Assembly: GCA_030141605.1 (NCBI GenBank)
Contig: JAQGDQ010000038.1
Location: 124,001 to 188,000, forward strand
Direction of reading: 5' to 3'
DNA: 64,000 nucleotides
From: Tubiluchus corallicola
Taxonomy: Eukaryota; Animalia; Priapulida
Part shown: piece after piece, positions 1,823-46,530 of the stretch
Layout of the letters: each line of letters begins with the position of its first letter
Position numbering within the stretch: the first letter of the stretch is position 1
Program-made: the position numbers and the translations under genes
The notes under the pieces: model-generated
What the model saw: only the letters and a program-made list of their open reading frames with translations
Told to the model about the DNA's origin: nothing
Databases searched by the model: none

Positions 1823-15165
<13,343 letters not shown>

Positions 15166-15192
15166 ACACCAAAGACTACAGATTTTGGCTAA

Positions 15193-15325
15193 AGTTTACA
15201 ATTCCCCTCACTCAAGAAATTAGTTCGTGAAACGGATTAGGGTTAAGGTTATGGTTAAGGTTAGGTCCAGGGTTAGGGTTTGAGTTTGGGTTATGGCATT
15301 TAAATTGTGTGGGGCATTGTAAACT
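15193..15325. mobile_element. Small inverted-repeat element (MITE-like) enclosing degenerate TTAGGG repeats, in MMP 3'UTR
   Basis: Arms agtttacaattcccctcac and gtgtggggcattgtaaact (17/19 complementary) flank ttagggttaaggttatggttaaggttaggtccagggttagggtt. Confidence 0.65.
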
Positions 15326-15853
15326 CCTTCCCAGGTTTTTACAGTATTTGTAAATTGCAATAATTACAGGCAAATATTTATCTTTCAGCAAAGCAAAAAT
15401 AAGATGTTTTACTAATTAAGTTATTTTTATTTATCAATACCTAGGCATTCAAATCCAAAGGCAGCTTAAGATATGTACACAACTAGATTCCCTGTGTCAT
15501 GTTCACTGTGTGTGTATGTCTACATTTATGACAACATTGCTCTTTATAGAGTATTATTCCCTTCACCTTTTATTGACTTCCACGATTTTAGAACATAATG
15601 CTGTACGGAGCGCAGGTACTTAGCAAATTCAATAGCATTTTGTATTTATTCACATTCTGTTTCATTTTAATAACAACGATTACCAGTCAATGTACATTTG
15701 TGTTCCATAAAAATAAATGTGATATATTTCTTTAACTAGTGTGTAAAAAGTATTTACTAAAGAAATGTTTCATTACAATGCAAAATGCTTCTTCGTGCAT
15801 TTACATAAAAAATAAAACAAAATAAGCTCACTCTTATTTATCCACTAGAAAAG

Positions 15854-18800
15854 TCAGCTAACATGATCCACAGAGCAATCACTAAAGTAAGTGCAGAGAA
15901 TATCCCTTGCTTGTTGTTGAATTTGTTCATTTACGTGGTTCTTGGATAAAGCACACAAACTCTCCAAAAATGTCTTTCTACCTTCAAAAGTCTGTAAAAC
16001 GTGTTAAAAAATCACTACACAAGCACTAAATCCTTCGACTGATAAAATTATTGAGAAATAAGTTAATAGTAACACAAAGAAACACACATTAATCAGATTA
16101 ATAATTCACAAAAGGTTTTTATAAACAAAAATTTATCAGCAGTAAAAAAGTTTTGTAAAAATTTTTTTACGAAAATGCTAACTTTGACGTAATAATATAA
16201 ATACAGACTATGAACTCTCTTAATCACAATGCAGAAACATTACATAAATTAGAAAAAATGCAACGAAGGTCCATAAACAAATGACAAGTACCAAATTATG
16301 GTGCAAACCCACGATTACGAATTTTGAAACAAAACTTTAAATAACAGAAAAGGTGAAAAAGTTGGAAAGCAGCCTAGATTTGAGTGAGGGTGGATTATAA
16401 ACCAACGTCATAACCACCAGACAACAGTATTTCTCAATGATCATGACAGTCCAGACACCAGACAACAGTATTTCTCAATGATCATGACAGTCCAGACTTC
16501 ATTTCTTACAAGTTAGCTATGTCCCAACTTTCTCACATTAAGATTATAAGTAATTAATTACATTCACATAATTTACATTAAGAAAAACAAGTGTCACTTT
16601 TTGTCCGAGAAGCCTAACAAATTTTATTTCTTCCTCAATAAATTTTTGAAGAATTGTTATACGTATGTACCATTGAATACAAATTTTAACATTATAGTAC
16701 ATATTACTAGGTAACTGTCTAGAAAACTGCAACTTGTTTAAACTTTGTGTCAAAGGAACAGTATTTTTCCCTTTTTACAAGCATCAATGTGAGTATTAAC
16801 TGTTAAATTATTCATGAATTTTCATTATTTATTTACTAGCAACCAAAGCTCCAAAATCAGCGCGACAGTTATTAAAATGAACTAAAATGTTATAATTCAA
16901 TATGCATATAAAATTAATAGTACAAAATAAAAAAACATAGTTGATAAATACTTTACAAAATATTTAATTTATTCCAGATAATACAGAATTTAAACTAAAT
17001 TTTATGTTTATTTCACAAACTTCAAATGATAATGGTTTGTGAATAAACCAAAATATCGTGCTTTTACATAATCTACTAATTATCAATAAAATGCCAGATA
17101 TTATCAAGAAGTCATCAAGTTATTAATGAGCCATAAAATTTCTTACCTTCAACTGTGATAAACGTAAGATTAGTTCAAGGAATGCCAATGTGAGCAAAAC
17201 TAACTCGTCATCAGGTGAAAGAAGCAGATCCAGCATGGAAACGACATTACTTAATGTAGAGACAGCCATATCAGGGCAATGATAATGCAAATTGCACAAA
17301 CAAACAATAGCCTAAAAAATAGAAAACGTCAAGAGCAACAAAAATATACTGAAAAACACATGGATAATGACAATTTGAACTAAAATGATTTGCAACATTT
17401 AGAAATAGTAAATAATGATAGAATGCTTCGCCCAGTGGTCTAGGCATGACGTTGGCATCAAAATTAACAATGGCACCAAAGCTAGCTTGTGCATTAGTGG
17501 ACACATGAAAACCACTCTGACTCCCACTCAGGGTAATTTCTTTCGCCATGCTGATTATGGCTATTTGCCTCACAGAGGTAAGATGTATACACATCCGAAT
17601 GTGGCCGAGACAACTTTCCTAAAATCATTTTTAGCGGTTCCAAAAGCCATAGTCGTGATATTGACACAGGTAGCAGTCTCACCAAGATCATCCAGTTTCA
17701 GTAGGACCTGATGTTCAATACTGTATTCTGGCTTGTAGGATTCCAGTTAATGTAAAATATGTTAGTTTCATGCCGTTACAAAAATAGATACTTTTACAGT
17801 AAAATAAGCTTGTAATACATACCAGTAACACACACGTTAAGCTGAAAAACAATTTCGAATTATACAAAATGTTTCACCTCTTTGGTACACTCGGGTGAAA
17901 TTTTACTCATTCTCCACATGATAGCTTCTTGACCAGAAATCAGCATTGCAATAGCAGAATTACCTGCACGAACAAAAACACAAAGTAAACACACGTAATA
18001 AAATGAATATAAATTCAACATTTAGAAGTAATATATATTGTTATATAAATTTAAAATCTAGAAGTAGTGTATCTTGGAAATTGATAATAAAAAGCCTACC
18101 AAGCATATTTGACAATGCCCACAGAGCTTCCTTCATTGCACAGTTTGAATGAGTGGTTGTTACGATGTAATCAAGCAAGGGTAGAAAGTGACTGACGAGA
18201 TCTGAGGCTACGTCTTGAGAAACTACTAGCGGTGAACCAAACAAACCACCGATGCAACAAAAACATAAGAGAGATACCTAAACATGCAGAGTGAGATCCA
18301 CTTAAACATGTTTCCATTACATAATAATCACACAAATACGTTCATTTTGCATAATGAGTTAAAATGGTTTAGGTAAAATTTAACTGCAATGGTTTTAGCT
18401 TCCTCAAAACATAAACGATGAATAATAAAGATAAAAACAGTATTTGTGATAAATAACTGTGAAAAATCTGATTCACCATAAATAGTAGTAAACGGTATTC
18501 AAAGAAAAAAAGTATACCACCACAACTAACTGCATTAAACAAATTTTGATAATAATAATAACAGTTCAGCATTTTTCTATTAGATAAACTATGTTACATA
18601 CCTGAATACTAACATGCTCTTCAGATTTTTGCAGCAAAATTCTCTCCATCACAGGACAAAGGGAAGATATTATTGTTTTCGCTGTTTCACTGAAGTCATG
18701 GGTTTCTCTAAAATATCAAGATGGTGGAAATTTTGAAAACCTTCTGGTGAAAATTTTTTCGCAATTACGAACAGATACGATATAAAACAGTGATTCAACA

Positions 18801-21800
18801 ACCAATTTTTACAGATGACTCTTTTTGTTGTATGACTCCCCAGTTACAGTAGCTATGACAGGAAATAACCACTATAGACCTATCCCCTCCAGAAATTAAA
18901 ATAAAGTTTTGCTTTAAAAGACAATATGCATTTTCCTGAATTTATTATCCCAGGTGGTGTCTATTATGGACAAAACTAACTTACGTGGACAAAATGTAAG
19001 CTAAATCCCATAATATTTGAGTCTGGATATCAGTTGTTAGTTCTGGCTTCCTTCTTAAACCCGTACAAAGACTGTTCACCACTCTAGATTTGTTCAATTG
19101 TCTTAAATCATAAAAACAAAAAAAATATTAACTTCATAAAAAAATTGACAAAAAAAAGATATCACAGTCCAAATCTAACAAATAAAGTGCAATGCAATCA
19201 CAAAAACTGGTCCATCTGTTTACCTGTTCACTCATTTTCCTGCAGCACATCTTAAAAACAAGCAAATGCAATTATCATAATAATCAATCATCATGCAATC
19301 ATAATATATCAATCATCATCAATAACGCAATTATCAATCATCATTATCATAACATAAGCAATCTAGTAGAAGTATTATTCTTACCATGACACAAGGCGTG
19401 CCATGTTTTTCATATCACGTGGTGCAAAAATGTGCCAAAGTTTTGACTTCGATACTATAAGAAGAAAATGACGGAATCTGCCAAAAAACCATTAAGCTGA
19501 TGTTGCATATAATTGCGTGTAAACACCAAAAATTTCAGGTCATTTCCTTAGACATTTTCCAAGATGCAAAGTTCTAAATCAATCAATAAAAAAACAAATG
19601 CTGGCAAAAATTTTTTATGTCACTATTATTAAAATATACAGCAAGTGCTCTGTGCGTCCATCACTTTCACTGTAAACAAAGGCATTTCTTCCAACACTTG
19701 ACACAGTCTTTTCTGTCTGAGATATTTGGTCCCAATAATCAACAATTTTTCTTAACAAAGTTTTATCAGTGCTTTATTTTCTGTGGTTGATGATGTTGGT
19801 GATGATGTGGTTTATTTTATGATGCGAACTGGTTGATTTCTTTATTGTTTTGCTGCCATGTAGGGAGTGCTATACTACATCAATGTGGCTTTTTTCAATT
19901 AATGATTAGTTGACATTGCTCAAGCATTTCATTTTTTAACTCGAAAAACTTTTCACTCATCACTTAAAATACGCTGCAGCTATGAACTTATAACTTTCAC
20001 AACCATATGCTAATGAATAACAATAATGTACTATGGAATTTCAGCTTTCTGGGTCACTTGCTTCTAAGATTATTGTAGTGTAAACTTTGGCACGTTTTTT
20101 GTGCCACCTGATATGTAAAAGTTTCAAATAAAAAATCATTGTAGTGCAATGTAATAGCTAAATTTGCCAGAAGGTTTAAACAACAACTCATTGTAACTTT
20201 TGCACATCTCAAAACAACTGAGTAAATAAAAACAACCTCAACTTTGACACTACTTTCGGCAATGTTCACGTATAAGTCATCATATTCAGAATTACACTTT
20301 GACCTAGCAGCAATTCAGAAAATGGATATTGCAAGTTAGTCCAGTTAACCCTTACAAGTGTACATATTCTTAGCTTACTGTAAGATAAGGTCATCTTGCA
20401 TTAAATTCATCAAACAAAATCCTGCAGAATAAACAACAGAGTCTGCATGAGAGTCTAGAAGATGCGGCAAAGGATGCAATATGCCTTGTGCCACCAACAT
20501 GGTTCTACATTCATTGCCGTCCGCTGCCAAATTCCCAAGTGCCCATGCACATTGGTCCTATTAAAACAATATAGTATGTTAGATCATGCTTACAAGTGCT
20601 AATGAAGCAGGACTTATCATACATTCATCAGCAGAATTTTGTTCTTTGCCTGCTTTAATTTTGATAAGAAAAACGGTTTACTGGTATTCAAATTTATTTA
20701 TACAGAGACAACAAGTTTTTCACTTTTGGTGGTCGTTATTAATAGTAAATATTTATCTTTTTGTGAAAAGTATAAATTTTGCTGCAAATTACCATTTCCA
20801 ACAATGATCATTATTATGTTTGCAGTTCCCGTTTTGTTTGATAGATTAATATAGTCAGATGCTCATACTTGCACTTAAACATTTCTGTTGCCATTACACA
20901 AAGCTCTACAAAACCAATTCAGAAAAGTGGAAAAAATGACAAAGCCACAACAATGATAAATACAAATGTTTTTCTCATTAATTTACAAACATATTAATCA
21001 TGTGATGTAAACAGGATTGCGATACCTGTAGTAAGATGCTGTTACTGTTCAAATAGGTGATAAGATATGGTCCTGCCATTTTTGCTATTGAGAAGCAACA
21101 TCCATGTTCACCTAAACAAAATAATCTGTTAATAACCAAAAAACATAAATATATAAGCCTACAATTAAGTGAATTTTGAAACTAACTATCGAAAAACAGG
21201 AAATGGAGAAAAGTTGGAACACAGCCTAGATTCGAACCAGGGACCTATTACTTACAAGACAGAAACCACAACCGTGAAACTACCATGTTCTTCAGCAATC
21301 ATGACACTGCAAGTTCATTCTTTGCAGCTGGCCAATCAGTTTAACATTTCTGATGTCATAAAACAGCTGGGAATATGGGATTGCAGAGTGGTCCATGGGT
21401 TATGACATCTAGCTTGTACACAAAATATCCCTTGTTCAAATCCAGGCTATGTTCCAACTTTTGTTGTTCTCCTATAATTTGTTTGGTTTCAAAATCCATT
21501 TAATTGCAGATTTGTATTATCACTAATAACACTCTTAACATTGAGATTATAAATAATTAATTAATTATTCTCAAGAAATGCAGGCTCAAAATTAATTAAA
21601 ATTGAGTTTATTTAATTAATTAGGAGCACTCTAGCATGAGCGACCTAACACTGATGGTGTTGAAATAGCTGGTCAACTACAAGGAATTAACTTCAGACTG
21701 TCACTATTGCTAAGGAACATAGTAACCTAGCAGTTACGGCATCTGCCTTATAAGAACATCATGGTTCAAATTCAGGTAGTGTTCCATCTTTTTCAACTGT

Positions 21801-24800
21801 TTTTTAAAGTTTGGTTTCAAAATTCAGTTAAGTGTGTGTGCTTGCAAAATTGTTAATAAATATCTTGATTTTGATATTATAAATAACTAAGCACTAAACA
21901 GCTAGCCATTTGGTATATAGTGTACATAAATCATGTTTAGATTGATAGCTGTAATTGCTTAAAAATGAAGTAACGCCCTAAAAATCACGGATTCGAAGTG
22001 AATATTCGGATAATGTGCGGTGCTACACAAACCATCAAAGGCTGAGAGACTAGTCAAATTCACTCTAAGAGCATTTCAATCCAGGTTTCGAGCTAGGTTT
22101 AAAATCCAATCCCTTATTCTGTTTATCCAGTAAAGACAGGTGTGGCAACTGACAAGTACTCAAGATATTGCAAACAGCTTCGCACTCATGACCATAGACT
22201 CAAAGAGGTCTACTGTAACTGCATGCACCAAAATAAATGAATTTGTCAAATGTAAAATACATACTTCATGGCAAAACGTATAGCTTACCTGCCGTTATGT
22301 TTGTAAGACAAAATGCTGCTTCCATTTGCAATTCTGCATCATTTCCCGTAAAGATGCTAGTCAGTTTCTGCAGGCAGCCATCAACTCTAGAAAAAACAAA
22401 AGTAGTATATGTCAGAATAGGAGTAACAGCTAGGACAATAGCTATTACCACACTTTAGTGTGACTTTCGTATTTGGAAGTTTTCTGTTAATGTTATTGAG
22501 GTTTTGCTTCATGCCAGTCGTAGTTTTAGCGTTGCTTAGTACTCATAAATTACCATCATTTTTTTTTTCAATAACAGATACAGGGAGTTTTTGTATCCAT
22601 GCAGTCACTTTTTCCCTCTATCTAATAATGTCGTTTCCAACTAAAACACGGCTTTTGATCTCTAGGTAAAAACTTTCTTTTCTCTTTTGATCAAGTTGAA
22701 ATTAAGTACTGATTATTTCAAAAAGAGAATGCACATATCATTACAGCACGTCTGTAGAATGTGAGGAGCTATCAAATTCACTTATGACAAAATCCAAGGG
22801 AACCAAAAATGTGCATCAGTAAATCTGTGTAGTAAAAAATAATAATATACAAGCAAATTAAGAATGCACTTTGTAGTTAAGAGCTTTTATAGTGCCATAT
22901 AGTGCATAGACATGGTAGTTGAGTATACGAAACACTCACTTGAAAAATTCTGTCATGAGTTCATCATCCGACACAAATGCTTGGTTTAGCAGCTTTAATG
23001 CCTTGAGTTTATCAGAAGAGGATCTGGCCTTCTTAAAGTCAGCAATGACTGCTCTTATCTGTGTGTAAAAAAATTTTAATTGTTAAATTTACAAACTCTA
23101 ATTGTGAATTCAATATACGATACAAGTTAAAGTTGATAAATTTGCTGATATTATGCAAGGCTTCCACATTCACACTATGCACCAACTTTATTTACAATAA
23201 ATTTTTGAACAAAGCTAGGGCTTTTGTATGCTAACAATTGCATGGAACAACACGTTATTTGCTTTGCAGTTTTCATTTTTTTTTTATGTTTTTAGTTTCC
23301 ACAATTAAGCAAAACAGCCAATTTAAGACAAATTTGACAAAGACTACTTACCATATTTCCTCCGAGTGTTTTGCCACATGAAAAAGTACAATGTAATTAG
23401 AAATTGAATCTCGCAATGCAAGACAAAAATAAAACAAGAAAAATCTCTATAATGCAAAAATATCAAAAACAATGGAGGAAACATGGGAAGTCAAAACACA
23501 ATAAGATATTCACCTAATTCAAAGAATATAAATATTATCTTTATTTAAATTAGAATTTAAATAGAATACAGTTAAACAATGAATGAAGATTTATGATTCA
23601 CCTTTTTTTAATATTATCACTACTTGCATAATTATATCTCAGTATCGATACAAAGACAACACTACATTGATATGCCCCTCACAGTATCAAAAACACCTTT
23701 ATCAAATAACAAGTTGTTTAAACTATAATTTCAGTTTGACAAACAGTGTCAGCATTAGAGTTACGAGAACTAACAACTACACAATGACTAGCAACATCCT
23801 GTAACTTAAGCAAAAATGAAACAAAACTTTGCACACTTATAAAAATGAGTTCAGATTAGGAATGTGCCATTTATTCAATTTGTATTAACAGTAGAATATT
23901 TGCTGACTTTTTAACGTTTGGTAATATAGGTTACTATATACGTGTTCACAGGTATTGGCACATGATTATTCAGCAATATTTGTTATTAGAGAAAATGGTA
24001 ACATCTTGACCAAATATTTTACTAGGTACATTGAACATGGTTTTTCTAAAAGCTGGAAAGTCTTTTGAGTTTATATTTTACACTGCTCGTGTGGTACATG
24101 TAAACAATATCATTATTCTTTACAAAATTTGAATTGCTCTTAAAATCTTTGATTTCTTTAGGAATGCAGTAATTTACGATAAATATAACACCACTATGGT
24201 AGTATTAGCACTGACTTACTATTTAATTCGCTTTGGTTATTCTATTTTTACATATAAATCTAGTCAGTTAGTATTCCACATATGACTATTTAAAAAAAAA
24301 CTTGTATTCATCACACCCCTCATTCAGATTTCAAGAACTGTTTCAGCCCGATTTGTATTTCATAGAAAGTTGTCAGCCAAATCAGAATGAAATCAATAAT
24401 TAGTCAATGCCAGTTAAACGTCTGTTATGTTCGTATTTTTGTTAAGCACTACCTAAAAACTTATTTCTGAATGCAACTGAAGCAAATTAATGTACTGATA
24501 AAGCGATTAAGAAAGCCTGTTTTGAACACAGTTCATTGTGACTTTTGCTTAGTTATATTAGCAATTAGAGAAAATTAGTAAACATAAAACATGCAGTTTA
24601 TAAAATGTAAACTTAGAGCATTTGATCACCTAAATCAATAGCAAAAAGCTTAGTTTACATAATGAAAGTCTTATAATGTTTATCGAAACATGAAAATATT
24701 TAAAAATTTACATGGCATCAAAATGAAATTTATGAGCTTCCTGAAGTCTTTCTTTGCGATCTGCAACTGTTTCTCTCCAATGCAAAATGCCAATGATACC

Positions 24801-27800
24801 AGCAACGAAGCCAACACTTCCAAGTAAAGCTGCACCAGTGTATATAAGTAAATCACTCGGTGTCACAAACAGTTTCATAGTCCATTTGCTAGGCTTACTG
24901 TTCGGATATGGTATTACAATCACCTGAGAATTTGGTATTATTGATGTCCATCGATGTTGCCTGATATCCTCACCTTTAGGATGAGGAATCCCAACTATTA
25001 AGTTATCAACAAAATTTGGAGTGCGACCTAGCCCAAAAACAGTATAAGGGAGCTGCAATGAATAATGGGCAGACTGAGAGAGCTGCGTGGATCTACTTTT
25101 CTGAGCAGAACCATCAGGACGAGATGTATCATACTGAATAGTTGGCCCTACTTGATTGGTTCCGTAAGGTGGCTTTCCCTCATTAATGCAATTAGTACAT
25201 AATCCGTTTAATGTAAGCACTTTTAGAAAGCAGGCATCATCAGAAAACATATTCTTTAATGCATGCACATTAGATACATCAGCATCTTGTGATCTATTTA
25301 CAACGAGCAAATCCAAAATGCCATTTTCATACAAATCAAAGAATGCTACAACAGTTGGATTTTCGATCCCGTACAAAGGTTTCATATCCCACTGCACAAC
25401 AAAAAGACGATTCAAGCCTAAGCATGTGTCACATGGCATATTTAGGAGCAGAAATGCACGTCTTTCCTGTCCTTCAGATTTCTGCAAAATTGTCACGATA
25501 TCGGGATAGCCATCGAGATTAAAATCACCGACCCAGAAATTCATACCAGTTGGCTCTGAGCTAGGAGGAACAAATCCCCAGGTGTCTGAGCCATGCTTAA
25601 AGCTAGTTAATGTATCATGCCACGACAAAGTGTCATAAAAATAAGCAAATAAATAAGATGATTTGCATGAATCGCCACAAGCTGCTATCACATGAACAAT
25701 GTTTCCATCACCGTTAAGATCTATGAAATGTGAAGGTCCAACATGGTCCATTTTTTTGCTGTCGTTGAAAGCATAAGTATGATTTAGAGTCAAAGAGCCA
25801 TCAAAATTGTACCAGACTTCATATGCATATATGCCACTACGTTTAGTTGTCACAAACAGATCTGCTGTTAAATCACTGTCAAGGTCGACAAAGGCACAAG
25901 AGTGTGGAAAGGCTAGCATATCATAAGTTCCGTTTATCTTAACAGTGACAAATCCACCTTCTGGAATCGAAGACCATGACCAAAAGTACCTGCTAATATC
26001 TGATGCACTTGTTTCTCCAAACAGGTCTGGCTGCATGTCCGCATTATAATCAACAAGTAATGGTTGATCTCGTAAAAGAACAGGTAAATACGAGACCCCG
26101 GGGAGAAAAGCATTCAAATTACCAAAGTGAATGCTGACATTGACAGGTGTTTCTGTACCATCAGTAACAGTGGTAATTAAAACATCCATCTTAGAATCAC
26201 CATTAAAGTCAGCTGGCATAACACTAGTAATCTCTCTATTTTTTGGAACGGAAATTGTCACATCGGATTTAGTGAAAAGAGGAGCATCTTTATTGCCTAA
26301 GTATAGCTCAACAGTTCTAGCATAGTTTTTTATTACAAAAATATCTGTCAGTTTATCTGCATTAAAGTCACCAAATGCAGCTATCGTGCCATTAATCTGA
26401 CCAGCAAAAACATCGGATGTGACATCTGACACAAGGATGTTTGCATTTGCTAAAGTGAAGAAATTCATTAAAAACAATAGCATCGTTAATTTCCACACCT
26501 CTTCTAATGAGACATCACTGAAGCCAGCAGGAGGTCCAAATGAGCGAAATCGTTTCTGTGACAAAATTGCAGCACGTTTCTCTTTTCTCGATTCTAAAAA
26601 TACGAAAAATTGTTTTTTAGTATCACAATACAAGATGCTTACAGCAAAACCGGAACCAATCTTAAATTGTAGATCAAAACAATCTATTCTTTAAAATATT
26701 GAAAGGAAACAGGTTTGTTTTTCAAAAATGACTTACGCAAAAGAATTATTACCACAAAAACGCAATTTCGTGTTCGCACCACTAGTTCTTCGCTGTTATA
26801 CGCAATTTGTAATTCGCTACTTAGACAGGCACTAGCGCCAGCATATCAGAAACGCGTTGCACAAAAACAGGTGCTGTACCTCTCAGTTCAGAGGTGCATA
26901 TTTGTTTGTGACATACTGCACGTGTTCGACAGCACATGCATGAGTACAGTGGTAAAATTGAAATTTGAATTTTTATCTTAAAATTTGCCAACGCTTTAGT
27001 ACAACACACTGAATGTCTTATAGTAGTGCTGTACTTCAATTTTTGCTTTTGCAGACACGTGCAACACGCTCATGGAATGTTTTGCTGTTGAAAGTTATGT
27101 TCGTTCGTGACATCATCAATAGTTGGGCCAACCTATCGTTAATTAAGATTTTAATCTGTTATCTAATTATCAGAAATGTTTTTGCCGTATTATTTGTGTT
27201 AAAAGGTATACTTTTTGCCATACTTGAAAATGGGGCAGTGTATGAAAAATCAACCTGTCTTCCTTTAAATAAATATTTCTGTAACTTAGGGTTTGCAATA
27301 GAATTGGGTAGTACTGTAATTACTACAGATAAATACAAAATTTTCATTGAAGTAAACAAATAATAAATTGTTCATTATTAATTCAGTTTTTCAGTTCACA
27401 CATTTCTGTATCAATAGTAAAACTGACTTAAACAATCGATGTACTACTCTAGTAACCCTACACGACATGCTTATTAACTTAAAAATCTTATAAGCCTATA
27501 TAGGTTAAAGCTGCTTCTAAAGGAATTAAAAGTACTTATTGTTAGTATTCTGTTGATTTAAATCATTTTTTGGCTGTTTCAATTTTAATTGTTCTGAAGC
27601 TGAATTTTTACACCAAATATTTTAGAAAATTTATCAAAGCAATACAGTTGAAGTCAGTATTTGATTTCTATAAAATGCACTGAATAATAGTAATAGTAAA
27701 CAATTATATGCCACCCTACAGCAATGATCAATGTGCAAGTAGCTGTTTTAGAGTCTTCAATGGAAACAAGACTGTGTTCAGTACGCGAGTCGCGTCATGG

Positions 27801-30800
27801 TATGGAAACGAGACAGATGCAGTTCCTCTGCATTCGTAACAGCTGTGTTCCAAACTGTGTGAGTGAATACAGTAATTTTTTGTAAAATCTATGCTGAGTT
27901 TCTGAAATTAGGAATACGGACAGAAGACCGCAAACATGGACATACTCGGAGTATGCAAAATTAAGAAAAGTGATAAAAACCAAAAATAAAAATAAAACAG
28001 ATTGAAATAAAAAACTGGAAAAAAATCATGATTTTTGATTTTTAAAAAAATTGAAAAAAGGAAAACTACTTCTTTTTAAATAAAAAACTGTGGAAACTGA
28101 GATAGATCTACAGACGTCTTAAAAAGCATGGCTACACGCATCTCCCATGAGATTTGTCTTTTATGAATTCTTAAGGGGTCTTTAACAACCTTTTTGAGAA
28201 CAAGATCTATAATGGTTAAAGGAGCATTGGGGTTTTTTAGTTATCATGTGCAAAAAACTGCTTATGAAACCCCAAAACCAAATATCAATTTTGCTTCACC
28301 TGTGCTCTCACTGCACCGTTTGTTTAATATTGAGTGGGTCATTACACAGATTTACTGTGATATTTGCCAACATGAGTTCATTAGTATCGCTACAGTGGGT
28401 GGCCTTCACTCTTAAATTAGATAAGAGAGCAGGTGATTAATATATACATGGAGCAGAGCTTTCTGTGTCTCATTCACTGAATTCCTATGACCAGTTTGCT
28501 GAGTCCAAATTTTAAAACAATCAGCGAACAATTTATCAAGTGAATAGCTTTACCAGTCATTACTGACATTTTTTCTAGATGGTCCGTGTCTTGTTGTGTG
28601 ACAATAATTTAATACACAAATGCTGTTTATTTGGTAGTAAATAAAATAACACATTATTAACACTAGAACGACCATGCGCGTCAACTGATACATTTTTTTA
28701 TTTTGTATATATATATATATCTGAAATTTCTGGAGAATACATTCCTATTTTTATTACTTCTCATAGTTTAGTGCTAAGTACAATTGTACAGAATTTCAGG
28801 GCTGAAATGTTACTCTGACCTTGTTAAAGATAGGTTACTACCTACGGAAGAACCATCTATATGAATTGATGTCAATACATATTGTACACTGCAAATCGTC
28901 ACAATGCACTGGTATCGTATTGGGCAGACATCACAATAGTAAATGTGAATGTAAATCTATGAATGTAAATTCACTAATGTAAAACAGCAAAATGTTTTGA
29001 CATCTTATTATGAGCTAAAAACTTGTGGTCTGAATTTTCTTGACGGTCAGTTCTCAGGATGGCCACCAGGTGGCTTGATTCGATGCAGGTTCTTGAAGCA
29101 CTGCAAAAACTGCCATTGGATGAGTCATTACACTTGTGCTGTATAAACTGCTTCAATTTTACATAGATTCAATTAATTTTCTGATGTATAATTGAATTTC
29201 AATAAAAACTGACTGGACTGATAACTACTAATTTTATTTTAATATATAAATACAAACTATGATTGCATCAATTGATGTAAGCTGGTCTTTCTGTTTAGTA
29301 AATTTTTCTGGTCCTTCTAGTGTTAATGGCATCAATTAATCAATTTATTTTTATTCACTCCATTTTTAATGTGTCTTGAGTGCTTTGTATCCCACCTAGA
29401 ACGAGGACTGCATTTACACTGAAAATTTTTTGCATAGCACTAAGTGCTACACAAATCTAGAATTGTGTTGCAGTTTCCATAGGGACATAGTCTACCAATA
29501 GAGACATAGAAACAATTTAGTCTAGTATAGTGACAGTTTTGTCTAGCATTTTGTAACTATTGTAAATAAGGAAAACAGTATAAAATTTGGTTCAAACTTA
29601 ACTATTTAATACAAAAGCAATCGACTGAATCTAATTCTCATACCTACAAAATAAGGCTTAGTCACTGTAACGTTTAGAGGGCTATTGCATTCCTAATTTT
29701 TATATAATGATCAGGAAAATATACTACATGTATTTTTACGGGTTCGTCTGCTGTTTCTAAGGCTATTTAGTTAAAAACAAAACAAGATGAAATATAAATT
29801 TTAAAGCTATAATTATTACAAAAGAAAAGAGTACAACAACAAGTCAACAATAAGAGTTCAAAATTACTACTAATCGCTTGCTGGGAAAACCTCCAAGGAA
29901 AGTCGAGGATAAGAAAATGAATGCGCATAACTTATCTGAATGTTCATGACGATATTACGCACAATGCAACTATCCTCCTCGTACAATGACAACGCTGACA
30001 CCGGCAACATGACGATCCTCCATGAGTCATAACAATGCAGATGGACAACAGCTAACCAACAGCTTCCAGCTACCCTCTTGTAGTCTACAACAACAACGTA
30101 CCAACAGCTGACTGGAATAAAATAACATCACACTTCTGTGGCTTGACCAGCTCTTCAAACCAGGTAACAGCAACGAGACTGAGAAAGACAGGCTATACAA
30201 CAGGAACACTGTCCTTTTTGCCAAAACAACACTTAGCTCAGCTTTGCATGGTAAAGAAGCTACATCACAGATCGTGTACCAGCCTTTCCAGACAAATACA
30301 TTAACTACAGGTATGCTGGAACATGCCCACTGGTCAGACCAACAACAAACGTCTGTACCAGTGAAAAGTATCAACTCAACTGTTCAGAACAGGTATTCCT
30401 TTTACTGCATAGGTATACGAAGCACTCCAACAGGTAGGTACAAAACATGACAGGGGTGAAGAGATGATTAAATGAAAGAATACATACAGCAGTGCAAGCC
30501 AAGCAAGCCATTTACTATCAAAATTAGCAACACACACCTCACAGTCACCAAAAATATTTATCAAAACTGTTCATTTCACTAACTTTGGTATATATAATAC
30601 AGTAATACAGCAAAAATGTCCTACAAAGGAAATGTCCTTGTAGGAAACAATGCCTTCCACAGAAAACAATGTAAACGTTCAGTTGCATTCCCTACCTAAA
30701 GATCAATCATGCTTGGCATACATTAGAGCACTCATTAAGTTGCCCTGGAGGACAAAAATCAATAATACCTGGCTATGTAAAGTGCTCAGTAGCCTTATTA

Positions 30801-32537
30801 GACAAATATTAATAACTAAAAGCTAAAGAGAACTAAAGTTTGCTGTGACAATTCAAATTTGAAACATCTTTCTTTCTTGCAGCCACATATCTTCCTCTGA
30901 TTGATGTCCTTCTGCCATTTCTTCCTCTTTCTTTTCTTCTATGCTTGGTTTTTATAAAAAAATCTAGTGTTGGTTGCACAGACTCTTCTTTTTTTTCTGC
31001 TAAAACTTCTTTTCAACACTGTAAAGCACTAACAGCATCCTGTCCACTTCCAAACTTCGCTCTGTATTTGGGTTAAAAAAATTAAAGTCTAGCGCCAATA
31101 CTGTATTTTTAAAAACTCTATACAGATGTTTAATGCTAGACCTTTATTTCTAATTAACACTCCTGAGAATATTTCTATTGTTGTTTTTCCAACAACGTAA
31201 ATGCAAATGAGGTGAACACATCAATAATTACAATATTAATATAACAGGAGAGATTTTTATCAGAGGAATTCTACCCACATGGAAAGGTGTTATAGCAATT
31301 AGCTAGTGGTCAGTAATGAATCATCGTTGCCGGTCTCCGACTGCTTAACAGGACAAATCAAATCACTACAGCGATTTCTGTTAATAGGACAAGTGCAGCA
31401 AACATTTCAGTGCTTGAAGGCTGAAGAAATTGTCGTTAAAATGAAACATCCATCGTTAAGTGAATAAAAGATGTCAAAAGATCAACATCGTAAAAACGAA
31501 ACGTCACTAAACAGGGAGTCGTTAAGCGAGGATTTACTGTACTATAATCTATCTTATGCTATTGGTACAGCCATATGTGACTGTAACGCTTTTTAGGATG
31601 ATACAAAAATGTATAGCTCACTAAACAATGATCAATCAATGGTTCAATTTCAATAAGACATTAACATTCTGGTTGACTGGTGCAGGTTATTGCAATTAAA
31701 GTTTAATACTGAGAAATGTAAATTGCTCCATATGGGTTCTAATAATCCAAAATACTCTTATTCCATAGAAGATGATAAAGGCAAAATAAAATCATTAGTG
31801 GTCACAAACTGTCAAAAAGACTTCGGTGTGCTGACTTACATAAACAGTGACATGATTGTTCAAATTATCAAAACTGTTATTAGGACAACACCTAGAATAT
31901 GCTAATGTCGTGTGGGGACGAAAGTTTATAGGAGATGCTCTACTCATAGAAAATATTCAACAAAGTGTTAAAGAGCTGATTCCATCATTCAATAACTTGG
32001 ACTACACAGAAAGACTAATAAAATTAAGCATTCAATCTTTACAATATAGACGCCAGCGAAGTGATAAGATCAAGATTTTTTGAATTATCAATAAAATCGA
32101 CGTTTTGGGCGAGTTAGCATTCTTCTTTAGGAATGCAGCAACTACTAGAGGTCATCCTTGTAAATTTTGCAAACCCAGAGCCAGACTAGGTGTAAGGAAG
32201 TACACCTTCAGCAATCGAGTAGTCAAAAGCTGGAATCGTTTAAGCAGCAAAACTTAATCATCTAAGTCAATAAATGAATTCTAGAGCAATTTAGAACATG
32301 AATGGAATCACGCAAAATTCCCTGTACGGTGTACTAAATGCCAGTAGAGAACAGGCATTACAGGTGAACCACGGATCTACTTCTGCTTCTACTTCTACTA
32401 GTCAATGTGATTTCAACATTGGATGTGGATGATATGTCGTTTCATATTTTCTTACCACATACAACAGACCGCAATGAAGATCTAATTGAGTTTGTTTCCT
32501 GTAGCCCAAATTTATATAATGACTGATAAACTGACAT
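15854..32537 (-). CDS. TMCO6: Transmembrane and coiled-coil domain-containing protein 6 (importin-alpha-like: IBB-like N-terminus plus ARM repeats), about 482 aa
   Basis: Twelve phase-consistent GT-AG exons: 32537-32456 (MSVYQSLYKFGLQETNSIRSSLRSVVC), 26593-26499 (ESRKEKRAAILSQKRFR..SLEE), 23058-22940, 22386-22289 (LTSIFTGNDAELQMEAAFCLTNITAG), 21111-21026 (AGPYLITYL), 20557-20379 (DQCAWALGNLAADG), 19101-18985, 18707-18602, 18277-18100 (KEALWALSNM), 17963-17878, 17311-17147, 15991-15854. Total 1449 nt including the stop. Motifs match recalled TMCO6 better than canonical KPNA. Confidence 0.82.
16320..16530. mobile_element. Partial copy of the tRNA-related palindromic element (see 21162-21506)
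   Basis: aattttgaaacaaaac...aaaagttggaaagcagcctagatttga matches the left arm at 21171-21235; gctatgtcccaactt matches the right arm. Confidence 0.6.
16416..16497. repeat. Perfect 41-bp tandem duplication
   Basis: accagacaacagtatttctcaatgatcatgacagtccagac occurs twice in tandem. Confidence 0.95.
17490..17715 (-). pseudogene. Degraded mariner-type transposase C-terminal remnant
   Basis: Frameshifted pieces (LLEPLKMILG..SDV..; RNYPEW..W.SCVH) resemble the mariner C-terminus LFGPLK..LGG..F.SD..KLP.RW.KCV. It forms a GC-richer island in an intron. Confidence 0.35.
21162..21506. mobile_element. About 345-bp fold-back element built from two outward-facing tRNA-like (A/B-box) arms
   Basis: Termini caattaagtgaattttgaaactaa and ttggtttcaaaatccatttaattg (21/24 complementary). 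B-box GGTTCGAATC on - at 21229-21238 and TGTTCAAATCC on + at 21433-21443. Confidence 0.65.
21650..21835. mobile_element. Inverted half-copy of the same tRNA-related element
   Basis: Its reverse complement matches the spacer and arm at 21165-21350. B-box GGTTCAAATTC at 21763-21773, followed by tgttccatcttt...gtttggtttcaaaattc. Confidence 0.6.
24708..26483 (-). CDS. ITFG1: T-cell immunomodulatory protein / LINKIN (integrin-alpha FG-GAP repeat protein 1), uninterrupted CDS of 591 aa, nested in TMCO6 intron 2
   Basis: Signal peptide MLLFLMNFFTLANA; FG-GAP-like repeats (AFGDFNADKLTDIFV, PADFNGDSKMDVLI, FVDLDSDLTADLFV, VGDFNLDGYPDIV, FFDLYENGILDLLV); QLSQSAHYSLQLPYTVFGLGRTPNFVD; IIPNSQVIVIPYP; one TM helix; diagnostic C-terminus EAHKFHFDAM. 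Confidence 0.95.
   Translation of the reverse strand: MLLFLMNFFTLANANILVSDVTSDVFAGQINGTIAAFGDFNADKLTDIFVIKNYARTVELYLGNKDAPLFTKSDVTISVPKNREITSVMPADFNGDSKMDVLITTVTDGTETPVNVSIHFGNLNAFLPGVSYLPVLLRDQPLLVDYNADMQPDLFGETSASDISRYFWSWSSIPEGGFVTVKINGTYDMLAFPHSCAFVDLDSDLTADLFVTTKRSGIYAYEVWYNFDGSLTLNHTYAFNDSKKMDHVGPSHFIDLNGDGNIVHVIAACGDSCKSSYLFAYFYDTLSWHDTLTSFKHGSDTWGFVPPSSEPTGMNFWVGDFNLDGYPDIVTILQKSEGQERRAFLLLNMPCDTCLGLNRLFVVQWDMKPLYGIENPTVVAFFDLYENGILDLLVVNRSQDADVSNVHALKNMFSDDACFLKVLTLNGLCTNCINEGKPPYGTNQVGPTIQYDTSRPDGSAQKSRSTQLSQSAHYSLQLPYTVFGLGRTPNFVDNLIVGIPHPKGEDIRQHRWTSIIPNSQVIVIPYPNSKPSKWTMKLFVTPSDLLIYTGAALLGSVGFVAGIIGILHWRETVADRKERLQEAHKFHFDAM
26737..26900 (-). promoter_or_regulatory. Candidate ITFG1-specific promoter / non-coding first exon inside TMCO6 intron 1
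   Basis: CpG-enriched island, ending at consensus donor GC|GTAAGT (26737/26736), 143 nt upstream of the acceptor of the shared exon (26594/26593). Confidence 0.45.
28661..29322 (+). mobile_element. Non-autonomous piggyBac element
   Basis: TTAA at both ends (28657-28660, 29323-29326). TIRs CACTAGAACGACCA and CACTAGAAGGACCA (13/14). A decayed Cys-rich C-terminal domain remnant (..KTAIG..HLCCINCFNF..) lies at about 29100-29165. Confidence 0.85.
30860..31541 (-). mobile_element. Degenerate Tigger/pogo-like DNA transposon relic
   Basis: Terminus TA|CAGTAAATCCTCGCTTAACGAC (reverse complement of 31518-31541) is Tigger-like. A decayed C-terminal transposase-like stretch (DAVSALQC..KK..VQPTLDFF..acidic tail) lies at 30870-31060. 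The second TIR was not found. Confidence 0.5.
31595..32400 (+). mobile_element. 5'-truncated CR1-clade LINE (RT C-terminal part), degraded
   Basis: DDTKMY..LVDWC..QLKFNTEKCKLLHMG; HLEYANVVW..IENIQ..LDYTERL..LQYRRQRSD; TTRGHP.KF.KPRARLGVRKYTFSNRVVKSWNRL, with stops and frameshifts; (TACTTC)n-like tail at 32378-32400. Confidence 0.88.
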
Positions 32538-32780
32538 GATGATTATTTGATAACTTTCTGTATTTTTTCTTAAATAAACCGTACACTACACTGAAAATTT
32601 ACGCCATGGTTGTTTATACCTGTCGCAATTCTGACAAAGAAAGAAATACTAATTTTTGTTAGAAACGACCAGTGTTTTGCAGCTGAAGACAGAAATAATG
32701 CTGCATTTCTTTTTTGCAAAAATCGATCGTTATAAAGTCATTAAATTATTTTTCATTTTTGCAAAGCTAAGACATCAGCC
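32538..32780. promoter_or_regulatory. Bidirectional promoter region between TMCO6 and MND1
   Basis: Divergent starts: TMCO6 ATG 32537 (-) and MND1 candidate ATG 32781 (alternative 33056) (+). Confidence 0.55.
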
Positions 32781-33570
32781 ATGGTAGCGTACGCAAAAGT
32801 CTGAATTGCGGGAAATTTAGACGCTGAATTGAGTGAATTCTGTGATTTAATTTCAGTCATAATAATTTCATAAGACTCTGAAGATGTATGAAAACTAGAA
32901 TCTGAAATGTGATACTTCTGATACCAATCTTTGTATATCCTCTTTCATTTGTGAAAAAAAGAATTATGATTGTATACATCAGTCACATATGACATGAATA
33001 CATTATTTACGTGGGCTTACAGATTGGAAGTTATATACCATAGCAGAATCTCAACATGGTATGCATGAAGACCTAAAGTGTAACTCAAATAACAACCTAA
33101 GTATAAATAATCACAACTAACAGCAACATTTTAAGCCAATGATTGTATCAGCTTGTTTGTATGCATTTGCTGAATTAGCCATCATAATATAATCACTGTA
33201 GTTAAGTGCATGCGCCACAAAAATGTTGTTTAGAGATTGTGTGTCTGATATAACCCAGTTTTGAGTTCCTTACACAATGGCTACCAGAATTAAAGGTACT
33301 ATAATATTCAAAATGATGGGTTAATAATAACAGACACCTTGTCACACAGAATGTCAAACCTGTCAACCATTTGACAAAATGGGTGTGAAACTTTAGAAAG
33401 TCTGGAGATCATCTCGCCCCTGGCAGCTGTCCAAGGGGCAAATTATGTTTCAGAAAGTTTTGCTTTTTTGGGTACCAAAATAAAATTGTGAAAAACAAAA
33501 AAATTACTGTTATTTTTATTTTTGGCTACGACTGAGCTTTCTTAGGTTGTTATTGCAGTTTACAGTGTTT

Positions 33571-33634
<64 letters not shown>

Positions 33635-36600
33635 CAACCACCCAGTTTAGTTTAACTTTAATGTACACCATAAGACTCATGAGCGCTACAATACTAATGA
33701 AAGTAGCACTGCTAATTGTGCTGTTATTGGTACTGATGGCAAAAGAAGCCAGGCAATTTGCAAAGTTACTTGTAAACTTTCAGAATGAAATCTGATCCGT
33801 GTCCATGTGTGAAAGACTGAAAGTGCGTTTGACACACGCCTGATGAGTGAGAGTTGGCAAATGGCAAGTCTGAAATGTACATTTTTAGAAGTTAACCATG
33901 TTTCAAAAAAATTATGAACACCAGTGGACATAGAATTTCTGTAGAAAGTAATTAATAAAACACTGAATACAAGACAGTTTTCACATACTATGCATTAATA
34001 TTACTAGATGGTACATTTTTTCATTTAAAACTTGACTACTTCTTGCCCGATGATGAGACTGTCCGAAAAACTTAATAAACTGCTGAATCGAAGAAACTGC
34101 TAGGTCCACAGACAAAATGTACATTATTAGCATACCACACACATAATTATCAAGAAGTAGCTATAAACAGAACCTGGCTGAACAGAACATGTACATTAAA
34201 TGATTCGATGACCCTTGTTCATACACTCAGGTCAGTGACTCACTCACCACCCTCAGATATATCACATTTAGGCTAGATTAGATTAGATAATCTTAATCTA
34301 ATCTTTGCTTAATACGATAATTAGTGTTCAACCATGCTGTGCATTACTGACTTTACATGTTTTTTTTCAGTCGAAAAAACGAGGTTTAAGTGCTGAAGAG
34401 AAACGAACAAGAATGATGGAAATATTCTTCGAAAAGGTTTGATATCACTTAGATGTTACCGCACATTATTATTAATTTAGAATTAGTTTAGTTATTATTG
34501 CATGACCAATAATGATGATGCCAGCAGCACCTAAATTCGGATAAACCTATTCAATTGCCTAGAGTACATTAGGTCTAATTTCACAGCAATGCAAGGCATT
34601 GTTATAAATCCTTCACTAAAAATGCGTTTGTAATGTAAGAAAGACAACATTTGAACAACCCAGTTTATTCTTCATTATTCATCAGACCAAACTCAGATTT
34701 TTCTTATAATTATTATATTATAAGTATTTAATTAGCTTCAAACAGCATTTTTTATATTAAGCATGCATCTAGTAGAATCTGCTACAAGAAATGACCTTTT
34801 GTCCATTTTTACATGAAAACAGGTTATTAGTTTATAAAGTTACACAAGTATTTTTTGCGTTTTTCATCGACCAAAACACCATCAATTAAAAAAATATATG
34901 TGAGGTTATAGAAAAATCAGAGCAGCAATTATGTTAGGCATAGAGAATGGTTTCTACTGTGGTTCTTATGGAGTGAGGTTTTATAAAGTAAAGAACAAAC
35001 GTTTAAATCAACAAATTACCAAAAATGCAATTCTGATCACTGTTTCTGGAAGTCAGGTTGGAAAGTAAAAATGTCTACCATCTTTGGAAACTAGTTCATT
35101 TGTAGCCAATAATATTTCCTTGGGTATTATAACTTAAGCTAAGCCTCTTAAGAATTTATTTAATCTCTTAAGAGGTAAATCTCCTACAAAAGAGATACTG
35201 ATGCCTACTAATGACCTCTTACCTACCACTGATGCTATTGCCTCATTAATTCAACATTTCTATGTTTTATCATTAATTCACCAAAGTTGCTCTAGCTGTC
35301 TGTTAAAACTCATGTATTCTTGTTATGGAGAATTTATAAACCTTGCTCGTTTGCAATATTTAATTTGGCATTATTATTCAACTAATTTATTTAATATGTT
35401 TTCAGAAAGAATTTTTTCAACTAAAAGAACTAGAAAGACTTGGTCCGAAAGTGAAAGGTATAACATCGATGAGTGTCAAAGAAGTGGTGCAAAGTCTTGT
35501 TGATGATGGAATGGTGGACACGGACAAGATAGGCACCTCTATTTATTTCTGGGCACTGCCAAGCAAGGCCGTGAATAACGTAAGAACAATTTTGAATTAA
35601 ATACAGTATACTCGCTGAATGTGCACAAATAATCGATAATTTTATAAACTTATAATATTATTTACTACTTGAATCATAAAATACTATTCGATTTTCCTAT
35701 ATACAGCCTGTACGTGTACTGAATAAACACATGCTGAATGCCACTTGCTCATTTAGGAAAACAAACACCTTGGCATTGGGCCAGTATCATTGTTCCAATA
35801 GAAACAATCTGCTGTTTTTGCCTATTTATGGCAGAAAAATCATTTCATTGTCTGCTCTGTGATTGAAAGTCAGGAAGTTTGGTACTCTTTACATACCTAT
35901 TCATCGTTGTGGCATCAAAGAGCTGTGAACATTTTGAATAAATTAATTCAAACAATGTAGAATGTTCATTGTGCAAAAACAAATTAGTTTTCAAAAATCA
36001 ACAACTCCGTGTAAATCATTTATGGTATACAACTGATTTTCAAGTTCATACTGCAGTAATTTAGTGTTATTGTGTCAAATTGTGTGCATTAATTCTTATA
36101 AAAGAATAAACAAATCTATTACTATGTGGACCTGATTTTGATAATAAATCATTACTCGTGAAATGCAGATGTTCCTATCAAAATCTAGACATATTTAAAC
36201 AGCTGTTATTTCTTTCTTCTTCCTTTTGTTTGAACGTTGGTACTGTTTTAGATATTTGTAGCTATTGGTTTTGTTAAGTATTTTTAACTGAGTAAGCACG
36301 CTACCCGAGTTGTTACAGCACTGAGATCTAGAGTCTCTGGGTTCAATTTGTACTCATGTTATGTTTTTGAAAAATTTTGCTACTTGAACAAGGTTTTCTG
36401 GCTGCCTTCCCAGTTGCTGTACTGTACTTTTTAATCTAATTGCTAATTTCATTTTTGTATTAAACCTGTGCCTGCCTCGTATCCACAACTGTTAAGCATT
36501 TGGGCATTTAATACAGTACAGAAATACTGCTAACACTTAAGACAGCTGCTCGATGCTACTAATGATGAGATCCCTTTCACATGATTGATTATAAATTTAA

Positions 36601-45000: not shown

Positions 45001-46530
45001 ATAGTGCAATGGTTGAAAAGAAAATCACGTGCTTATGTCTGGTCAATGTGGTTCCTGGTTGTTGCTGCTACTTACATTCCACCAGTGGCGATGAATAGCT
45101 TATCATAATTCTGTTTGCGACCATCTTTAAAACAAATACTTTTCTTGGAAAAGTCAACTGATGTTGCCTCTGCGGAGAACTGTAGCTCTATATCATAATC
45201 TTTGAAAAATTTTGCATCACGCAATGCCAACTTTTCTGCAGTCATATCCAAACTCTGCCCAAAGAACATAAGCAATTATTACTCTCAGGGAAAAATTATA
45301 AATCTTCATGTTGGTTGTTATACAAAATCCTACTGGAAGTGGAAATCATACAAAAGTTTTCGAAGAATAAATGATATTTGATTTTGTTGTGCCTTAAAAA
45401 GGTTTTGGGCTGTTTTTTAAACAATAATTCAACAAACATGTCATTCATGTTTTTCTAAATTTGAAAGTACATTAATCACCTTGCTGAGTTTTGGCTTATC
45501 ATACGGGAGGAGTTTTTCCTTAGTAGCTATTATAATACGACCTTGAAAACCTTCTTGGCGCAATGTTTCACTGCATTCAGTCGATGCTGGACCACTGCCA
45601 ATTATTAAGAAAGTTCGTGAATCACTGCTTGTTTTCTTTGACATCTGCTTTACTCGTTTAGTCTTTGTTACAGCTTCTGACGTTGCCTTAACTACAACAT
45701 CACCATCACGTAGTTCAACTTGATAGACTGGTATTGAATCCAACCCAGGAAAGTCTTCAATATCTCCAGTTTTTATATTGAAACAAGCTCCATGCCAAGG
45801 ACATCGTATTCTATTTGTGCACAGTGCACCTAAAATATTAACAACATTATCAGCTTGAACTTGACAATAATTTTTCAGTTTGCTTATTCATCCCATTGCT
45901 TTATGAAAAAAAATTATCCATTTTATATGACTGACCTTTTGCAAGTGGAGCACCATAGTGTGTGCATTTTGTACCAATTGCACTGTACTCTCCGTTCTGC
46001 CGAACTAACAAAATTTTTCCTTCTCCCACCTCAACTTCTTTCATTCTGTAATGTGTTTTAGAGTGAATTAATAAAAACAACGGTTCTGCACATAGTTAAC
46101 ATATTTTCCCCACACCGAAAGGTATCAAAAATAGTGACATTTCTAAGTGAACAGCCTTTTACTATACACAGTATTGCTGATCCTGTTAATTAGTCACACA
46201 AATAGGTGTGCATCACCATCATCATCGTCATCACCCCTTATCTCCTGGGCTTCATGGATTCGACAAAATTGGCAGTTTGTATCAAAAAAATGCATATCAA
46301 TAGAAAGGTCGAGCAAAGCCATTATTTTTTTAGCTTTTAAACTAATGCCATATTGCATATATTGCTAATTGTATCGTTATATTTAATAGAGACGTAATAA
46401 GGTTTTTCTTACTCTCCATCTTTCAGATCATCTTTCTTGCAAACAGTAACTTCCATAATATTTTCAGAAGCTGGCTTATCAATCTTTAAGCTACTCTCTT
46501 GTCCTGTCTCAGCACCAGTTATGGTGACTT
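42100..46530 (-). CDS. AIFM3: Apoptosis-inducing factor 3 (Rieske 2Fe-2S plus FAD/NAD pyridine nucleotide-disulfide oxidoreductase); first coding exon uncertain
   Basis: Exons 46530-46413, 46045-45936 (KCTHYGAPL), 45829-45480 (RCPWHGACFN..GDIEDFPG; IIGSGPA..LRQEGF..PYDKPKLSK), 45254-45076 (YDKLFIATGG), 44626-44496 (VVIVGTSFIG), 44244-44129, 43757-43545, 43355-43238 (GGDIV..IQHWQMA), 42879-42781 (VPFFWT), 42675-42600, 42256-42100. All are phase-consistent. Confidence 0.93.

Follow-up and report, generated by a model that had tools for sequence, protein, structure and literature searches.

This study concerns a window of 64,000 nucleotides (nt) of DNA from the priapulid Tubiluchus corallicola (positions 124,001 to 188,000 of the forward strand of contig JAQGDQ010000038.1, NCBI GenBank assembly GCA_030141605.1), by which we mean the whole stretch analysed, and within it two unrelated genes that meet at one splice donor. 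The outer gene, on the minus strand, is a TMCO6-like gene with 12 exons, all of them GT-AG, encoding 482 amino acids (aa). Its exon 1 (32456-32537, 82 nt, start ATG at 32537) is in phase 1, exon 2 (26499-26593, 95 nt) brings the cumulative phase to 0, exon 3 lies at 22940-23058, and exons 4-12, which carry the ARM repeats, are spread over 15854-22386 (22386-22289, 21111-21026, 20557-20379, 19101-18985, 18707-18602, 18277-18100, 17963-17878, 17311-17147 and 15991-15854). The second intron of this host (26498-23059) contains, on the same strand, the whole coding sequence (CDS) of an ITFG1/LINKIN gene (24708-26483), which is a single open frame of 591 aa without introns. The donor GT and the rest of a 15-nt open spacer (26484-26498), reading VWKLT, are all that separates exon 2 from the ITFG1 ATG. 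An earlier note on this DNA had described the layout; its exon phases, with exon 2 entering 23058 in phase 0, and all of its coordinates agree with our analysis, as do the nesting of ITFG1, the ATG 15 nt past the donor and the spacer, which is in frame and has no stop.

We consider the host gene at the beginning, since the argument depends on exon 2. The earlier note held that this exon is needed for TMCO6, and our results bear this out: exon 2 is a required coding exon. When it is omitted, the host frame shifts and runs into a stop inside exon 3, and when it is kept, it contributes +23 bits to the score against a family hidden Markov model (HMM) built without the host protein. The complete model aligns with the Dreissena protein P0121, which has the Pfam domains IBB and Arm, at 33% identity (E 1e-68), and the alignment is gap-free across the first 217 residues, exon 2 included. 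Among 2892 six-frame open reading frames (ORFs), exon 2 is the top match to the IBB columns, yet a weak one by itself (E 0.13); a tblastn search with P0293 recovers it at E 0.007, and exon 2 alone has no match in Pfam. As to the neighbouring choices, exon 1 ranks first, at 24.8 vs 19.8 bits, among 215 candidates for a phase-1 first exon, and donor 26499 does so, at 96 vs 86 bits, among 20 phase-0 donors. The ranking on IBB columns, together with this donor and exon scoring, leads us to reject any other exon 2 or donor. The protein has the IBB-like N-terminus, the following ARM repeats and the length of about 480 aa that characterize TMCO6. In a quick tree it groups with P0357, the only named TMCO6, in an animal clade of 22 rows with support 97, apart from a clade with support 100 which, judging by its N-termini, we take to be canonical importin-alpha; both the host and P0357 are long branches in this tree. 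As for the proposal that exons 1 and 2 together form the IBB-like N-terminus, the alignment and the HMM agree with it, while the charge of the exon-1 half does not: this half has 2 lysine or arginine residues (K/R), level with one of the 24 family rows as the lowest, and 23 of the 24 rows have 3-6. The exon-1 half thus appears to have lost most of its basic residues. Besides, at least 13 unnamed proteins of about 200-260 aa (P0164, P0167, P0174, P0187, P0192, P0226 and P0333-P0339) match just the N-terminal 40% of TMCO6, that is, the IBB segment and the first ARM repeats, and they are possibly a truncated, lineage-specific form.

The nested gene is assigned with less effort. Pfam detects FG-GAP and C2_ITFG1 in its product, and features of ITFG1/LINKIN are found, namely FG-GAP repeats, a membrane-proximal C2 domain, one transmembrane helix and a short conserved tail. 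A hydrophobic stretch, a candidate for a cleavable signal peptide, follows the ATG. The closest protein is ITFG1 of Priapulus caudatus (XP_014670356.1), with 55% identity over the full length and a conserved C-terminal end, and the remaining 119 of the 120 listed of 654 ITFG1 matches have 39-45% identity, a difference that by itself makes a priapulid the probable source of the DNA. LINKIN, a type I membrane protein that acts in adhesion, carries a short signal sequence, and its C. elegans gene lnkn-1 contains introns (PMC4275582). In a set of 38 metagenome loci, ITFG1 is split into exon-like pieces at seven (L029, L030, L032, L034, L035, L037 and L038); it is a single continuous frame in six contigs of 4-9 kilobases (kb) that are arthropod-like by best match (L008, L010, L012, L014, L019 and L022). 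The gene in the window is therefore an intronless copy of an intron-bearing gene, as a retrogene is. Other marks of retroposition were searched for around it, and neither a poly(A) remnant (the longest A runs are 7 and 10 nt, more than 1 kb downstream) nor a target-site duplication (the longest shared word is 8 nt) was found; such marks are expected to decay in old retrocopies. Since ITFG1 is intronless in several arthropod-like contigs as well, the loss of introns may predate the nesting. Three of these contigs have a layout of their own: in L008 (900-1070), and likewise in L010 and L012, ITFG1 has no in-frame ATG ahead of its signal peptide, and an invariant acceptor-like sequence is followed by a basic extension of about 25 aa, a layout that seems to point to an exon farther upstream or to initiation at a codon other than AUG. 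Downstream of the ITFG1 frame in the window, candidate polyadenylation signals lie within host intron 2 on the minus strand (23870-24227, with ATTAAA at 24227 and AATAAA at 23875).

The two genes meet at the donor GAG/GTGTGG (the slash marks the end of exon 2). Reading through it from the host ATG gives 655 aa with zero stops, so the length of the chimera given in the earlier note, about 655 aa with 64 extra residues, stands; the description of those residues as basic needs toning down, since they hold 11 K/R and 6 acidic residues (D/E) and are only mildly basic. Nor is the donor, which the earlier note called weak, unusually so for this gene: its consensus score of 5/9, the lowest of the 11 donors, is shared with 3 others, and in a leave-one-out weight matrix it ranks 4th of 11. 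A 15-nt spacer would be in frame and stop-free with a chance of about 24%, and we reject the frame match as strong evidence for this reason. Frame match, donor strength and basic charge are thus each less telling than had been held, and the closeness of the two genes is the striking part. The junction itself is not an assembly artefact, as a contig of the sequencing run X1 crosses it (26334-26690) with one differing letter, at 26367, which we read as synonymous. X1 may be the assembly's own sample, and it behaves as low-depth DNA because introns are covered. The arrangement is real, and a single species shows it. Because the 15 nt from the donor to the ITFG1 ATG contain no AG that could be an acceptor, an ITFG1 leader longer than 15 nt must include exon-2 sequence; here the earlier note was right. 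With such a leader, the presence of exon 2 in both mRNAs would be forced by geometry. From this layout it is likely that exon 2, besides coding for the second half of the IBB-like segment of TMCO6, serves as a leader of the ITFG1 RNA. The exon also contains a three-codon upstream ORF that is out of frame (26504-26515, minus strand).

A further property of the junction, which is new here and absent from the earlier note, is that the GTG at the donor falls on the usual start position of the ITFG1 family. Among the 120 listed homologs (of 654), 116 could be anchored, and the distance from their first Met to the first GDFN motif has a median and a mode of 43 residues (the mode is found in 55 of the 116). 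In the window, the ATG at 26483 is 37 residues before GDFN and the donor GTG is 42. The leader that begins at this ATG is shorter than those in 111 of the 116 homologs and has no basic residue; similarly short leaders are found in the other 5, at 37 residues or fewer, and in L031. The GTG is also in register with Met6 of Priapulus ITFG1, the KL that follows is shared, and KL at this place occurs in 2 of the 116 homologs. Moreover, 45 of 119 homologs start with MW and 6 of 119 with MWK. However, the MW starters are mostly teleost fish, with 5 of the 6 MWK proteins from Antarctic fish, and the rest of the leader has almost no identity with that of Priapulus, where MAFFT inserts a gap. With MW starters that are mostly related to each other and a leader that is otherwise divergent, the match is suggestive only. 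It suggests that the donor GT may be the remnant of an ITFG1 start codon, or else part of a working GUG start.

Where the ITFG1 RNA would begin is the question on which the interpretation turns. The reading we prefer, with a probability of about 45%, is that the ITFG1 mRNA would start locally upstream of exon 2, read through the donor and use its own ATG to produce ordinary ITFG1. The start would lie either within the final few hundred bases of intron 1, where the repeat is a possible place, or in exon 2, which would act as 5' untranslated region (5' UTR), and the RNA would end at a poly(A) site of intron 2. Transcripts from the host promoter would mostly be spliced 26499>23058 and give TMCO6. 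Since ITFG1 requires the poly(A) site whichever promoter it uses, part of the host RNA would be cleaved at it before splicing, and the 655-aa precursor encoded by this share would be a by-product. A long N-terminal domain ahead of a short hydrophobic stretch tends to remain in the cytosol, with the cleavage site kept. Signal peptidase would thus likely trim the precursor, and the mature ITFG1 should be identical by either route. The GTG of the donor would then be a likely leftover of an older ITFG1 start codon. The candidate local 5' leader is a 328-nt stretch free of ATG on the minus strand (26516-26843), made up of the end of the repeat, the tail of intron 1 and most of exon 2; it is the second longest of 1321 minus-strand gaps, with a P of 0.0007 by shuffling and 0.004 from dinucleotides in what is a post hoc test. 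The observed/expected ratio of CpG is 0.92 in the unique part (26400-26636) vs 0.61 for the window, which places this part in the top 10% of 140 windows over the host span. In addition, the ITFG1 record of Priapulus shows a Met where the GTG lies and no TMCO6-like extension, which may count, weakly, against an old fusion. For a promoter within a host exon that coexists with a fusion form, CSB-PGBD3 offers a precedent (PMC2268245).

Several results weigh against a local start. Directly upstream lies a high-copy repeat (26637-27271, with inverted arms at 26697-26724 and 27243-27271), which resembles a miniature inverted-repeat transposable element and has a summed X1 depth in the thousands. The repeat ends about 45 nt before the exon-2 acceptor, and merely these roughly 45 bases are unique between the two. 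About 200 of the 328 ATG-free bases are inside it and its own CpG ratio is 0.99, so that the lack of ATG and the raised CpG may each stem from the repeat itself. Besides ATG, other trimers are missing from the ATG-free stretch, 5 of the 64 in all. CpG enrichment as independent promoter evidence is rejected, because the repeat has the same ratio. The upstream AUG at 26515 opens an ORF whose end is 20 nt ahead of the ITFG1 ATG, and this ORF would reduce the translation of ITFG1. The leader from 26483 is, as said, short for the family and lacks a basic residue, and the spacer would add one. Since the junction is in frame, the odds shift about 3- to 4-fold towards the chimera. Apart from this weighing, X2, a presumed RNA run with the same species label, gives five contigs at 88% on 13600-33500, none of them on the coding parts of TMCO6 or ITFG1, and 0 contigs at 80% on 26100-26690; this absence says nothing about expression. 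The X2 contigs differ from the window at about 5-8% of letters (13973-14979), which suggests that X2 may come from a divergent population or a related species.

The chief alternative, put forward in the earlier note, is a promoter shared with the host, a reading that is possible though rather doubtful. Exon 1, exon 2 and the read-through sequence would here form one RNA, translated from the host ATG into the 655-aa precursor, whose signal peptide of about 78 aa would include the IBB-like segment, and the choice at the donor would set the ratio of TMCO6 to ITFG1. The junction is open and in frame, ITFG1 adjoins the donor at the start position of its family, and the repeat is pressed on the acceptor directly upstream of exon 2. 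The host ATG has an A at -3, and two further AUGs precede that of ITFG1, so a host-initiated RNA would yield mainly the chimera. Long signal peptides can be functional (PMC2447879), and long leaders do exist in some ITFG1 homologs, such as P0021 and, with their basic extension of 25 aa and no in-frame ATG, L008, L010 and L012. On the other hand, the 24% chance of a frame match takes weight from the junction, ITFG1 retains an ATG of its own, the stretch upstream is free of ATG, and the exon-1 half of the IBB-like segment is poor in basic residues. No fusion of TMCO6 and ITFG1 is found among the 120 listed of 654 ITFG1 matches (325-1035 aa), nor in the Priapulus record. The stronger version, that ITFG1 has neither promoter nor start of its own, the old ATG having become the donor GT, and is made when the donor stays unused, from the TMCO6 ATG and with an IBB-like signal peptide of about 78 residues clipped off, we consider unlikely. 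For the released peptide to be targeted to the nucleus, as the earlier note had imagined, the K/R content of exon 2 is all that speaks.

Compared with these, a double role of the GUG, as splice donor for TMCO6 and non-AUG start for ITFG1, is quite improbable. The signal peptide would then have its full length, with WKL next to the initiator and a start 42 residues before GDFN where the mode is 43 (55/116), and the register with Priapulus Met6, the shared KL and the counts of MW (45/119) and MWK (6/119) are in its favour; nevertheless these starters belong mostly to one clade, the teleosts (5 of the 6 MWK to Antarctic fish), the diverged leader and the MAFFT gap make the register unsure, and the ATG five codons on makes initiation at GUG needless. 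Very improbable, to our mind, is a negligible overlap, in which the ITFG1 RNA would begin in the spacer or at the very end of exon 2, or receive its leader by trans-splicing or from a cryptic acceptor near the exon end. AGs at 26517, 26503 and 26500 have 8-11 upstream pyrimidines and could act as such acceptors, but a promoter would still be needed in exon 2 or upstream, and a search of the literature at the level of titles and abstract openings did not find spliced leaders in priapulids. A leader of fewer than 16 nt is unusual, which counts against this explanation too. That the arrangement is an assembly artefact or a dead copy hardly deserves credit: although a further copy of ITFG1 may exist elsewhere in the genome, the X1 contig crosses the junction, the frame of 591 aa is intact and the protein keeps its 55% identity to Priapulus and its conserved C-terminal end. 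A local start upstream of exon 2 thus remains our preferred reading.

As to other genomes, TMCO6 and ITFG1 are unlinked in human. The scaffolds that carry them differ in length in five of the six species for which both proteins are listed with such a length (Lineus, Liolophura, Mactra, Owenia and Antennarius; the lengths are equal in Saccostrea), showing that the two genes are mostly unlinked elsewhere. No priapulid TMCO6 is present among 260 ranked proteins of the host family (the best has 35% identity over the full length) or in the clusters looked up for 20 proteins, and at the 38 metagenome ITFG1 loci, many of whose flanks are short or are transcripts, no flanking match to the TMCO6 profile is better than E 0.3. 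In the open-access literature we found no paper on a pairing of TMCO6 with ITFG1 or on ITFG1 as a nested gene, and among the listed papers on ITFG1/LINKIN and the lack of introns no title describes this layout. Around the host gene, MND1 (Pfam Mnd1, E 2e-25; 32606-35579, plus strand) stands head-to-head with TMCO6. For its first exon, of one codon, there are candidates at 32606 and 32781; with a distance of 70-245 nt to the ATG of TMCO6, a bidirectional host promoter is likely. Near the 3' end of the host ends a plus-strand gene (12632-14980), presumably a matrix metalloproteinase, on which an X2 contig is spliced 14782>14928. Farther off, the minus-strand exon 45441-45887 has the Pfam domains Rieske and Pyr_redox_2, and we assume it to be AIFM3-like; another minus-strand exon (63122-63505), without a Pfam match, is presumably LZTR1-like.

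The meaning of the locus depends on the route taken by ITFG1. If ITFG1 starts locally, one exon would be coding sequence for one gene and 5' UTR for another, which is also a trap for gene annotation. If the host promoter is used, a cytosolic domain would have become part of a long signal peptide, donor use against intronic polyadenylation could balance the two genes, and a single splicing choice would set an ARM protein of nuclear type against a receptor for cell adhesion. Among the known systems that come close is the cholinergic locus, where ChAT and VAChT (cha-1/unc-17) share a first exon and VAChT lies in intron 1 (PMC3469465). The two loci are alike in having two unrelated proteins, a nested gene that has the strand of its host and occupies one of the early introns, and an exon shared with the host, here a predicted one. 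The shared exon of the cholinergic locus is, however, the first, followed in intron 1 by the nested exon or exons, while that of TMCO6/ITFG1 is internal and coding. The nested ITFG1 gene is not joined by a splice acceptor of its own, since no AG lies between donor and ATG, and the donor has to stay unspliced. For the cholinergic genes it has been demonstrated that RNA is shared, and for TMCO6/ITFG1 we infer it.

In CSB/ERCC6-PGBD3, a fusion and a solo protein are made, the latter from a cryptic promoter in a host exon (PMC2268245), and as here an intronless ORF sits in a host intron in frame with the preceding exon. PGBD3, a transposase, is spliced on through an acceptor that it carries itself, whereas ITFG1 is a conserved cellular gene reached by reading through a donor, and its signal peptide would likely be cleaved off together with what comes from the host. 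Many chimeric and orphan retrogenes are known, and jingwei and TRIM5-CypA resemble our case as intronless copies of intron-rich genes that lie beside or inside a host and may borrow its exons (PMC5470649); unlike in them, the TMCO6 host stays whole, and a poly(A) tail and a target-site duplication were not found at ITFG1. At H13/Mcts2, transcription of the nested gene terminates the host RNA early (PMC13309782), and the difference is that a TMCO6 RNA ended early would code for a precursor of ITFG1, in frame and free of stops. The long bipartite signal peptides of the NtraC type, such as that of shrew-1, have at least 40 residues and a separate N-domain, and they are functional (PMC2447879); the likeness would apply only if the chimera is made, and the N-domain would then derive from another gene. 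On the whole, where genes share an exon or a retrogene is fused to its host, a splice acceptor is normally what links the nested gene, while here two conserved and unrelated genes meet at a splice donor, placed on the usual start position of the nested one.

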